This document shows, piece after piece, positions 13,209 to 13,519 of a DNA stretch of 47,469 nucleotides. The translations under genes and the position numbers were made by a program. The notes under the pieces are model-generated. The model ran no database searches, was not told the DNA's origin, and saw only the letters and a program-made list of their open reading frames with translations. The DNA is from a virus (lineage: Duplodnaviria > Heunggongvirae > Uroviricota > Caudoviricetes): IMG/VR virus record IMGVR_UViG_2877274432_000010; one strand, written 5' to 3'. Each line of letters begins with the position of its first letter. Position 1 is the first letter of the stretch.

Positions 13209-13285
13209 GGCCCTTTAGCTCAGTTGGTCAGAGCGAGCGACTCATAATCGCCAGGTCGCTGGTTCAAGTCCAGCAAGGGCCACCA
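13209..13285 (+). tRNA. tRNA with CAU anticodon (Met or Ile2/lysidine type)
   Basis: Cloverleaf with 7-bp acceptor stem GGCCCTT/AAGGGCC, anticodon loop CTCATAA, T-loop GGTTCAAGTCC, 3' CCA; resembles E. coli ileX but diverged. Confidence 0.75.
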
Positions 13286-13286
13286 A

Positions 13287-13363
13287 CCACCACTAGCTCA
13301 TCCGGATAGAGCATCAACCTTCTAAGTTGACGGTGCGAGGTTCGAGTCCTCGGTGGTGGGCCA
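13287..13363 (+). tRNA. tRNA-Arg (UCU)
   Basis: Acceptor CCACCAC/GTGGTGG, anticodon stem TCAAC/GTTGA, loop CTTCTAA, T-arm CGAGG-TTCGAGT-CCTCG, CCA end. Confidence 0.8.
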
Positions 13364-13365
13364 GC

Positions 13366-13441
13366 GCCGACTTAGCTCAGCAGGCAGAGCAACTGACTTG
13401 TAATCAGTAGGTCACCAGTTCGATTCCGGTAGTCGGCACCA
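13366..13441 (+). tRNA. tRNA-Thr (UGU)
   Basis: Acceptor GCCGACT/AGTCGGC, anticodon loop CTTGTAA, CCA end; near-identical to E. coli thrU-type tRNA. Confidence 0.8.
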
Positions 13442-13444
13442 TAT

Positions 13445-13519
13445 GCGGGCATCGTATAATGGCTATTACCTCAGCCTTCCAAGCTGATGATGCGGGTTCG
13501 ATTCCCGCTGCCCGCTCCA
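13445..13519 (+). tRNA. tRNA-Gly (UCC)
   Basis: Acceptor GCGGGCA/TGCCCGC, anticodon loop CTTCCAA, T-loop GGTTCGATTCC, CCA end; resembles E. coli glyT. Confidence 0.85.

Follow-up and report, generated by a model that had tools for sequence, protein, structure and literature searches.

Probable integration of a glyU-type island into a prophage-borne tRNA-Gly gene in Shigella flexneri

Why do four tightly packed tRNA genes stand directly beside an integrase gene inside prophage DNA? We addressed this question for a stretch of 47,469 nucleotides recorded as viral DNA (Duplodnaviria; Heunggongvirae; Uroviricota; Caudoviricetes; IMG/VR record IMGVR_UViG_2877274432_000010), which we call the window throughout, and in which an earlier note, made from the letters alone, had drawn attention to a tRNA cluster at 13209-13519. 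In our analysis, the cluster is a prophage tRNA array whose tRNA-Gly gene probably served an island of the kind that resides at the chromosomal gene glyU as a rare, paralogous bacterial attachment site (attB), after which the locus decayed through insertion sequences (IS). The most noteworthy part of the locus is not the tRNA array, but the stub of the island, which bears T7 promoters.

We started from the genes themselves. The tRNA genes predicted by ARAGORN across the 47.5-kb window number exactly four. All are on the plus strand, at 13209-13519, with spacers of A, GC and TAT, so that the tight spacing of 1-3 nt described before is exact; CCA is encoded in all four genes. Their scores against the Rfam tRNA model RF00005 (56.4-70.5 bits) lie well above its gathering threshold of 29 bits, which settles the doubt, raised with the first description, that they might fall below it. 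The first gene (13209-13285; 70.5 bits) has a CAU anticodon and is of the ileX/ileZ type (tRNA-Ile2), with 69 of 77 positions identical to ileX of Escherichia coli K-12. It is followed by a tRNA-Arg(UCU) of the phage argN type with a C1-G72 acceptor end (13287-13363; 56.4 bits; about 58 of 79 positions identical to argU), by a tRNA-Thr(UGU) that is a near copy of host thrU (13366-13441; 69.8 bits; 74 of 76 positions), and by a tRNA-Gly(UCC) that is the same as host glyT at all 75 positions (13445-13519; 64.9 bits), whose 3’ end forms the junction with the island on the side of the left attachment site (attL). Comparison with the chromosomal paralogues of K-12 consequently supports the earlier description of ileX/thrU/glyT-type genes with substitutions for the CAU and Thr genes, but not for the Gly gene, which has none; the Arg gene is not argU-like.

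The CAU gene deserves a closer look. Its acceptor stem (GGCCCTT...AAGGGCC) contains the pairs C4-G69 and C5-G68, which are recognition elements of TilS in E. coli. Because both pairs are kept in an ileX-like body, we take this tRNA to be tRNA-Ile2, which would decode AUA once modified to lysidine; RefSeq labels an identical gene as tRNA-Ile. The first 172 nt of the array, comprising the Ile2 and Arg genes, are 88-90% identical to records of Shiga toxin 2 (Stx2) phages that annotate ileZ and argN. The array thus joins an Ile2-Arg pair of this phage ileZ/argN type to a Thr-Gly pair that seems to have been captured from host thrU and glyT, lacking tyrU and the long spacer.

The prophage setting of the array is clear. 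Between about 1701 and 13519 its sequence agrees at 93-99% identity with a lambdoid prophage of E. coli VL40, which confirms that the cluster lies inside prophage DNA, and this homology is broken only by IS1, two IS3-family elements and one 1.3-kb element that recurs at 37338-38671. The order of the prophage genes is replication genes, nin genes (DUF1367, YbcO), a Q-like DUF1133 gene, isrK and C4 RNAs, an ORF6N gene and the tRNAs. The cluster had been placed between a phage late region and an integrase; an integrase does lie downstream, at 13634-15238, but the upstream replication, nin, Q-like and antirepressor genes are early or regulatory. The Q-like gene (10366-10641, plus strand; Pfam DUF1133) is cut short by a nonsense codon, as a one-base difference has put TAG at 10639 where other S. 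flexneri have TGG, leaving 91 rather than 184 residues; full-length copies show a faint match to Phage_antitermQ. Further on, the antisense RNAs isrK and C4 (10953-11141, plus strand; Rfam RF01394, 75.6 bits, and RF01695, 77.6 bits) form an immunity/antirepressor control module 5’ of the ORF6N gene. This module is split by an IS3-family element (11242-12490, plus strand; HTH_Tnp_1 and rve domains), of which the window holds five copies. The 3’ part of the ORF6N antirepressor-like gene (12491-13000, plus strand; Pfam ORF6N 5.6e-18), identified also by its synteny with the ORF6N gene of VL40, is the last prophage protein gene before the tRNAs.

The same four-tRNA array, 99.5% identical, is present in VL40, flanked by DUF1133/ORF6N on one side and by holin on the other, with the holin, lysozyme, terminase and head genes about 680 bp further on. 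Phage vB_EcoS-689R5 carries a variant array between Q and holin, and in E. coli prophages copies that are 99.5-100% identical have the ORF6N gene on one side and the holin gene on the other. Judged by gene order, the array of the window occupies the canonical lambdoid slot, after the Q-like and antirepressor genes and before the expected lysis cassette. The earlier comparison with tRNA sets carried downstream of Q by lambdoid phages holds, both for this slot, as in VL40, and for the 88-90% identity to ileZ/argN. By itself the array is ordinary, a common and familiar prophage array with annotations in hundreds of genomes: of 5,426 complete E. coli genomes, 603 match it over 80% of its length or more, and in one strain it is 100% identical. 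The lysis, head and tail-shaft genes expected 3’ of the array are deleted, so that the window keeps only the upstream half of the synteny, and no VL40 homology beyond the array (holin, terminase and so on) was found elsewhere in the window. The remnant is a decayed S. flexneri lambdoid prophage that also carries sitABCD.

As a separate observation on these arrays, the second tRNA is called Lys(UUU) rather than Arg(UCU) in many related prophages, with an anticodon loop of CCUUUAA versus CUUCUAA (in E. coli EPSSH018, at 15092-15168 of its locus); this variant has two loop changes and an unusual C33, and some other arrays receive a Val call in place of Gly. On their sequences, both kinds of variant look like phage tRNAs with shifted anticodons.

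Next, we asked where the prophage ends. The alignment with VL40 contains only three substitutions up to ...CCCGCTCCA at 13519, the exact CCA end of tRNA-Gly, and the two sequences are unrelated beyond that point; the matches of phages and E. coli genomes to the array also end at 13519. Exact-match search and the junction alignment identify the last 17 bp, TCCCGCTGCCCGCTCCA (13503-13519, plus strand), as the equivalent of an attachment core. The same sequence TCCCGCTGCCCGCTCCA is the core of the right attachment site (attR) in the E. coli genome EPSSH018, whereas islands at glyU use TCCCTTCGCCCGCTCCA instead. The island integrase, an intact tyrosine recombinase of 534 amino acids (13634-15238, plus strand; Pfam Phage_integrase 2e-17 and a weak DUF6538 match), starts 114 nt past the end of tRNA-Gly and is co-oriented with it. 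Its closeness to the integrase of a glyU island, that of E. coli 21AR0133, amounts to 96% identity at the protein level. Exact copies of the protein are indexed in 2,232 public assembly blocks, and the 10 complete genomes inspected share the local gene order. Among enterobacterial phage records no close relative of this integrase was found, the only phage matches being Pseudomonas phage integrases at 30-32% identity.

The relatives of the integrase indicate where such elements usually reside. We considered the complete E. coli genomes listed with at least about 72% query coverage, 46 of which reach at least 80%. Among the matches listed, the integrase and its flanks are 83-94% identical at the nucleotide level and stand beside a lone tRNA-Gly, and all of them start within the shared 3’ part of tRNA-Gly only. 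We checked 21AR0133 in detail: its order is actS, tRNA-Gly(CCC), integrase and, further on, ygeQ and the E. coli type III secretion system 2 (ETT2) region, which is the glyU position. There, TCCCTTCGCCCGCTCCA occurs three times and bounds two tandem islands, the first of which, 7.3 kb long with its IS5, is closely related to the element in the window. Direct repeats of 17 bp, taken from the tRNA 3’ end, flank the island in 21AR0133, and an attR was also found in EPSSH018 and in a relative, L018. On this comparison, relatives of the element normally enter the 3’ end of the chromosomal tRNA-Gly(CCC) gene glyU. A Logan contig of 6,635 bp, which has the size of an island and was considered as a candidate for an excised circular form, proved to be the chromosomal junction of tandem islands, and no excised form was found.

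EPSSH018 provides the closest parallel to the window. In this genome a prophage tRNA array (Ile2, “Lys”, Thr, Gly) is separated from the holin gene by an integrase of 77% identity and its cargo of about 6 kb. The tRNA-Gly beside the integrase is a hybrid, with a phage-type body and a glyU-type 3’ end (...TTCGATTCCC-TTC-GCCCGCTCCA), and the displaced phage-type end (TCCC-GCT-GCCCGCTCCA) is found 6.3 kb downstream, directly before normal phage DNA. As read from these sequences, this is a complete attL/attR signature of recombination between an island attachment site (attP) adapted to glyU and a phage-borne gene of the glyT type. Such use of a prophage gene is rare: the phage array lies upstream in only one of 159 complete E. 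coli genomes that have an EPSSH018-type integrase beside tRNA-Gly, and that one is EPSSH018. Its hybrid tRNA-Gly (15250-15324, with the attR core at 21664-21680 of its locus) contains an A7-C66 mismatch and a C-U mismatch in the T-stem. Because it is the glyU-type 3’ end that brings these cloverleaf mismatches, integration may have damaged the tRNA-Gly of EPSSH018.

In the window, too, the phage copy of glyT most likely served as a rare paralogous attB. This copy would be usable as an attB because its T-loop and last 10 nt are also those of glyU. Subsequent IS insertions and deletions would then have removed the right half of the island with its attR, together with the lysis, head and tail-shaft genes of the prophage.

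What, then, could the tRNAs do for the prophage? The antirepressor operon is closed by an intrinsic-terminator-like hairpin with a U-run (13097-13121, plus strand; predicted RNA fold -19 kcal/mol, z = -5.7), although a consensus terminator scan made no call there. A candidate sigma-70 promoter, TTTGCA-18-TATTAT (13170-13199, plus strand; 9 of 12 consensus positions in a promoter scan), ends 9 nt 5’ of the first tRNA. Framed by these two elements, the array may be a transcription unit of its own. The terminator scan called no terminator between tRNA-Gly and the integrase gene, and read-through from the array into that gene is possible. The four tRNAs would probably be made as one precursor, from the candidate sigma-70 promoter and/or by read-through, and we suggest that RNase P and 3’ exonucleases would cut it, because the spacers are only 1-3 nt long and CCA is encoded. 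The products would read the A-ending codons AUA, AGA, ACA and GGA, and their likely role would be to supplement decoding for phage and other acquired genes. We propose this role since host genes seldom use AUA and AGA, whose frequency is several times higher in the genes of the prophage. In the small samples compared, AUA amounts to 14.6 per 1000 codons in prophage early genes versus 5.0 in core genes, and AGA to 10.1 versus 1.8; the integrase, the tail-fibre genes and ipaH are likewise enriched in both codons. Codon usage, which the earlier note had proposed to examine, hence sets AUA and AGA apart (3-6-fold enriched in prophage genes), but not ACA and GGA.

We also considered a link between ipaH and the array or island, and rejected it: ipaH (42036-43751, minus strand) lies about 28 kb away in a different, inverted prophage remnant. 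Furthermore, the region 13001-13633 differs at no more than one base (0-1 mismatches) across 10 complete S. flexneri genomes, and the arrangement is fixed in all 10. This conservation says nothing about selection on the array, because 0-1 differences represent too little divergence.

Several points weigh against the account given so far. Its structural part lacks one end: we looked for 26-, 23-, 17-, 13- and 10-nt 3’ ends of tRNA-Gly, of both glyT and glyU type and with up to three mismatches, and found no attR in the window. Integration at this site is therefore deduced from the junction and from the relatives, not from both ends; the absence of attR is explained by IS1, which truncates the island at 18407. 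In addition, the 3’ end of tRNA-Gly in the window is purely of glyT type, while the closest relatives of the island have the glyU core, which differs at 3 of 17 positions. For a pure glyT end to arise, the crossover must have fallen within the last 10 bp, a heteroduplex overlap must have segregated, or there must have been an attP adapted to glyT. If the three mismatched positions lay in the overlap, recombination would produce a heteroduplex, replication would yield one attL of each type, and the window and EPSSH018 would represent the two segregants of such a heteroduplex. Its functional part is uneven, as supplementing codons would fit the Ile2 and Arg genes but only weakly the Thr and Gly genes: these two copy host genes, and ACA and GGA are only 1.2-1.6-fold enriched in the prophage genes. 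Finally, the prophage is defective, given the nonsense codon in the Q-like gene, the IS-split antirepressor and the missing late genes, so that any phage-side function is moot in this strain. The suggestion that the cluster is the target of the adjacent island consequently keeps its core, the exact junction at the CCA end of tRNA-Gly and the EPSSH018 parallel with both attL and attR, but with the reservations that the window has no attR and that a phage tRNA is an unusual, paralogous site.

These points have to be set against other explanations. The junction might not stem from integration at all: the island could have sat at chromosomal glyT or glyU, and homologous recombination or an IS-mediated rearrangement could then have brought it next to the phage array. 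For such an exchange, the Thr-Gly segment of the prophage matches thrU and glyT almost perfectly over about 150 bp, self-BLAST finds many IS copies across the window, which is full of rearrangements, and the pure glyT-type end, where relatives have a glyU-type core, fits this history, as does the missing attR. Nevertheless, we regard it as quite unlikely, as no complete E. coli genome among those listed has the island beside a glyT-type gene, the break falls exactly at CCA, just as in the bona fide attL of 21AR0133 and of EPSSH018, and EPSSH018 proves that the family can enter a prophage tRNA-Gly in a site-specific manner. Next to no chance is left for the idea, raised in the earlier note as the alternative that would undo its claim, that the array is the ordinary chromosomal operon in its native context with an integrase element beside it as usual. 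In K-12, thrU-tyrU-glyT-thrT form one locus upstream of tufB, and ileX and argU lie at separate loci, so the gene arrangement is different however closely tRNA-Gly and tRNA-Thr agree with chromosomal glyT (identical) and thrU (nearly so); moreover, the array is flanked by phage genes and lies internally, between Q/antirepressor and holin, in both VL40 and phage vB_EcoS-689R5.

A different kind of objection concerns function rather than origin. The four tRNA genes could be inert leftovers in a dead prophage, their conservation reflecting nothing but the recent origin of S. flexneri. That the 10 S. flexneri genomes differ at 0-1 bases over 633 bp, non-coding flanks included, speaks for this, and so do the duplication of host genes by Thr and Gly and the state of the prophage, with its Q-like nonsense codon, its IS-split antirepressor operon and its lost lysis and morphogenesis genes. 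We nonetheless consider inertness unlikely, since all four genes exceed the tRNA threshold by a wide margin, the array could form an independent unit, framed as it is by a terminator and a promoter-like site, and the ipaH, integrase and tail-fibre genes of the window are enriched in AUA and AGA. On balance, we continue with the reading in which the prophage array acted as the landing site of the island.

What remains of that island? Island homology spans 13520-15987 and 17883-18406 and then ends at an IS1. Directly after the integrase stop, Tandem Repeats Finder (TRF) detects a 121-bp tandem repeat in 3.1 copies (15251-15619, plus strand), and each repeat copy contains one exact T7 RNA polymerase promoter (15327-15349, 15448-15470 and 15568-15590, plus strand). 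All three match the 23-nt consensus TAATACGACTCACTATAGGGAGA (-17 to +6) at 23 of 23 positions, with zero such matches expected by chance. They point away from the integrase, toward a conserved leader and then an iteron field, and 2-3 copies are kept in 10 of 10 S. flexneri loci and in the 21AR0133 glyU island. In T7-group phages of Escherichia and Yersinia, TAATACGACTCACTATAGGGAGA occurs 12-15 times per genome, and some of the sites are annotated ‘promoter’. The exact 23-mer is present in only 9 of 185,579 species-representative genomes; one of the nine is the chromosome of Klebsiella pneumoniae ATCC 13883, and the other eight carriers, small contigs from unrelated taxa, are probably contaminants. 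Vector contamination as the source of the promoters in the window was ruled out: they lie in a natural 121-bp repeat that S. flexneri chromosomes share with a glyU island of E. coli, and homologous modules exist in other genera.

Downstream of the promoters lies the leader (15620-15784, plus strand), which local BLAST against island relatives shows to be common to the island family in Escherichia, Klebsiella and Yersinia. It is followed by an AT-rich field (77% AT) of TTAACTTAAAG-type iterons (15785-15975, plus strand; TRF periods 11/23/47), a candidate replication origin, and equivalent iterons are present in every island relative examined. The arrangement recalls the primary origin of T7 itself, which is laid out as tandem promoters followed by an AT-rich region. 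The island is then interrupted by an IS3-family element (15988-17882, plus strand; self-BLAST and rve domains), with island homology stopping at 15987 and resuming after 17882. Separately, this element carries an internal tandem duplication of 646 bp (16591-17236 = 17237-17882) that splits its transposase into two rve open reading frames. The remaining island DNA (17883-18406, plus strand; BLAST to relatives) holds a conserved leader and the first codons of a Rha/Ant-like gene (open reading frame 18252-18434; Phage_pRha match on the 60-residue product), which is cut by IS1 (18407-19175; domains and self-BLAST). What survives in the window is only the integrase, promoters, leader, iterons and first Rha-like codons; there is no cargo and no RAZR gene. 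The right part of the island and the late genes of the prophage were evidently lost together.

The relatives show what an intact element looks like. Without IS elements they are 6-7 kb long and contain an integrase, a regulator of the Ant/Rha/Bro type and iterons. K. pneumoniae ATCC 13883 has, one after the other, tRNA-Gly(CCC), a 535-residue integrase, PD-T7-4/RAZR, three tandem promoters, and then the same leader and iterons. Its promoters are of two specificities, one being of the T7 type and two of a Klebsiella-podovirus type; in 371 records of Klebsiella podoviruses the latter recurs at about 10 sites per genome. The promoters of the EPSSH018 island are of a type used 8-9 times per genome by T7-like podoviruses of about 40 kb, Kayfunavirus records included, and found in phages of Escherichia, Shigella, Salmonella, Citrobacter and Cronobacter. 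A relative in Yersinia enterocolitica has variants of the T7-type promoter ahead of successive gene modules, as well as an extra protein of 1,365 residues with an SLT domain, and a Pectobacterium relative, also at tRNA-Gly(CCC), has a T3-like promoter and variants of it. Integration is at tRNA-Gly(CCC) wherever the site could be checked, namely in E. coli, Klebsiella and Pectobacterium.

PADLOC identifies PD-T7-4/RAZR in EPSSH018 (E = 3e-97) and in ATCC 13883 (E = 8e-99), where the gene overlaps or abuts the 3’ end of the integrase gene; in EPSSH018 it overlaps. The EPSSH018 and 21AR0133 islands end in homologous genes (28% identity, E = 1e-29), whose family, always annotated as hypothetical, has further members in the islands of Klebsiella, Yersinia and Pectobacterium and elsewhere in Enterobacterales. 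By fold search, a predicted HK97-fold capsid-like protein is present in five of five intact relatives examined, and RAZR in two of them. For three cargo proteins (one of 67 residues, a DUF6971 protein and one of 373 residues), searches with PADLOC, PHROGs, Pfam, NCBIfam and PDB sequences gave no clue to function, and what could be learned came from the fold search alone. Among the genes of the island relatives we recognised no primase, terminase or portal gene.

From these gene and promoter arrangements we lean, by a small degree, towards a family of 6-7 kb Enterobacterales islands that would be wired to phage RNA polymerase promoters and induced by an infecting T7-like phage, as a satellite, a defence island against virulent T7-like phages, or both. 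Induction by a T7-like phage is the most economical reading because the promoter specificity tracks the T7-like phages of each host; the iterons behind tandem promoters, the Ant/Rha/Bro and capsid-fold genes, and the anti-T7 abortive-infection gene of some members also led us to it. In this scheme the polymerase of the infecting phage would switch on the island and perhaps replicate it via the tandem promoters and the AT-rich iteron field. The island would then express Ant/Rha-type and HK97-fold capsid-like proteins, and some members RAZR too.

How do the array and the island compare with known systems? The array resembles the ileZ-argN(-argO) sets that Stx and other lambdoid phages carry downstream of Q in its slot, in the homology of its first two genes and in the decoding of AUA and AGA. 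It differs in having the host copies Thr(UGU) and Gly(UCC) rather than a second Arg gene, in following an isrK/C4/ORF6N module rather than Q directly, and in that no toxin genes come after it. With the host operon thrU-tyrU-glyT-thrT it shares the Thr (74 of 76) and Gly (75 of 75) identities; unlike that operon, it lacks tyrU, the 116-nt spacer and thrT, and its Thr and Gly genes, spaced by 3 nt, are fused behind phage Ile2 and Arg genes. The island follows the pattern of islands that target tRNA genes (glyU, pheV, selC), with a co-oriented integrase just past the 3’ end of the tRNA and with relatives bounded by 17-bp repeats. In contrast to those islands, its target in the window is a phage-borne glyT-type paralogue, it is nested in a prophage, and its right end is lost.

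The published concept that comes nearest to an island nested in a prophage is that of helper-embedded phage-inducible chromosomal islands (PICIs), which target late protein-coding genes of their own helper and have a dedicated integrase clade (PMC10111431). The island is similar to them as a small integrase-bearing element nested in a lambdoid prophage, but it has a tRNA gene as target, appears to use such a prophage site only as a rare off-site (the one genome in 159 mentioned above and the S. flexneri lineage), and carries promoters that indicate T7-like phages rather than the lambdoid prophage in which it is nested. Homologues of PD-T7-4 often overlap an integrase gene (Vassallo et al., 10.1101/2022.05.12.491691). 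The EPSSH018 and ATCC 13883 islands, though not the one in the window, resemble such integrase-linked PD-T7-4/RAZR loci in carrying PD-T7-4 at the 3’ end of the integrase gene. In the searchable parts of the PD-T7-4/RAZR papers (10.1101/2022.05.12.491691; PMC13017515) we found no mention of phage-type promoters, iterons or a capsid-fold gene. Intact relatives are also reminiscent of two satellites of virulent phages, the phage-inducible chromosomal minimalist islands (PICMI) and the PICI-like elements (PLE), and of capsid-forming PICIs (cfPICIs) in their small size, integrase, Ant/Rha/Bro regulator, iterons and HK97-fold protein. They differ from all three in having promoters of single-subunit phage RNA polymerases ahead of their genes and in the lack of a recognised primase, terminase or portal gene.

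Our search of the literature, which covered few subscription-journal papers and is correspondingly weak evidence, found no description of the promoter-bearing island family, of natural islands with T7 promoters or of T7 satellites, nor of the S. flexneri array or of integration into prophage tRNA genes. If the proposed induction is true, these islands would be the first known satellite or defence elements induced via a virulent phage’s own RNA polymerase. The array, for its part, shows that prophage tRNA sets can unite genes of phage type (Ile2, Arg) and genes captured from the host (thrU, glyT). Inside a prophage, such a captured gene can act as a landing pad for islands that normally use the chromosomal tRNA gene, which offers unrelated mobile elements a simple route to nest and possibly to travel together.

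Other features of the window lie outside the array and the island. In the nin region of the prophage there is a hok/sok-type toxin-antitoxin system, with an Rfam sok match at 7819-7993 and a HOK_GEF open reading frame at 7931-8143. The stretch 20674-27646 contains tail-fibre genes (Caudo_TAP, phage_tail_N, DUF4376), sitDCBA on the opposite strand (sitABCD, 23112-26561, minus strand) and a 217-residue integrase fragment (26993-27646). Because sitDCBA follows the tail-fibre genes, we place this iron/manganese transporter at the tail-fibre end of the same decayed prophage. A group II intron (29262-30875, minus strand) encodes a 507-residue reverse transcriptase/maturase and has its Rfam catalytic domain at 29262-29348. 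The isrK/C4 pair occurs twice, in inverted orientation, at 10953-11141 (plus strand) and 39270-39458 (minus strand), the second copy overlapping a Rha/Ash gene (38877-39509), which indicates that two related prophage remnants face each other in the window. Finally, ipaH at 42036-43751 (minus strand) encodes a 571-residue protein with LRR_TTSS and NEL domains, in which AUA makes up a fraction of 0.29 of the Ile codons, and it is adjoined by the Shigella small RNA CssrB (43880-44062).

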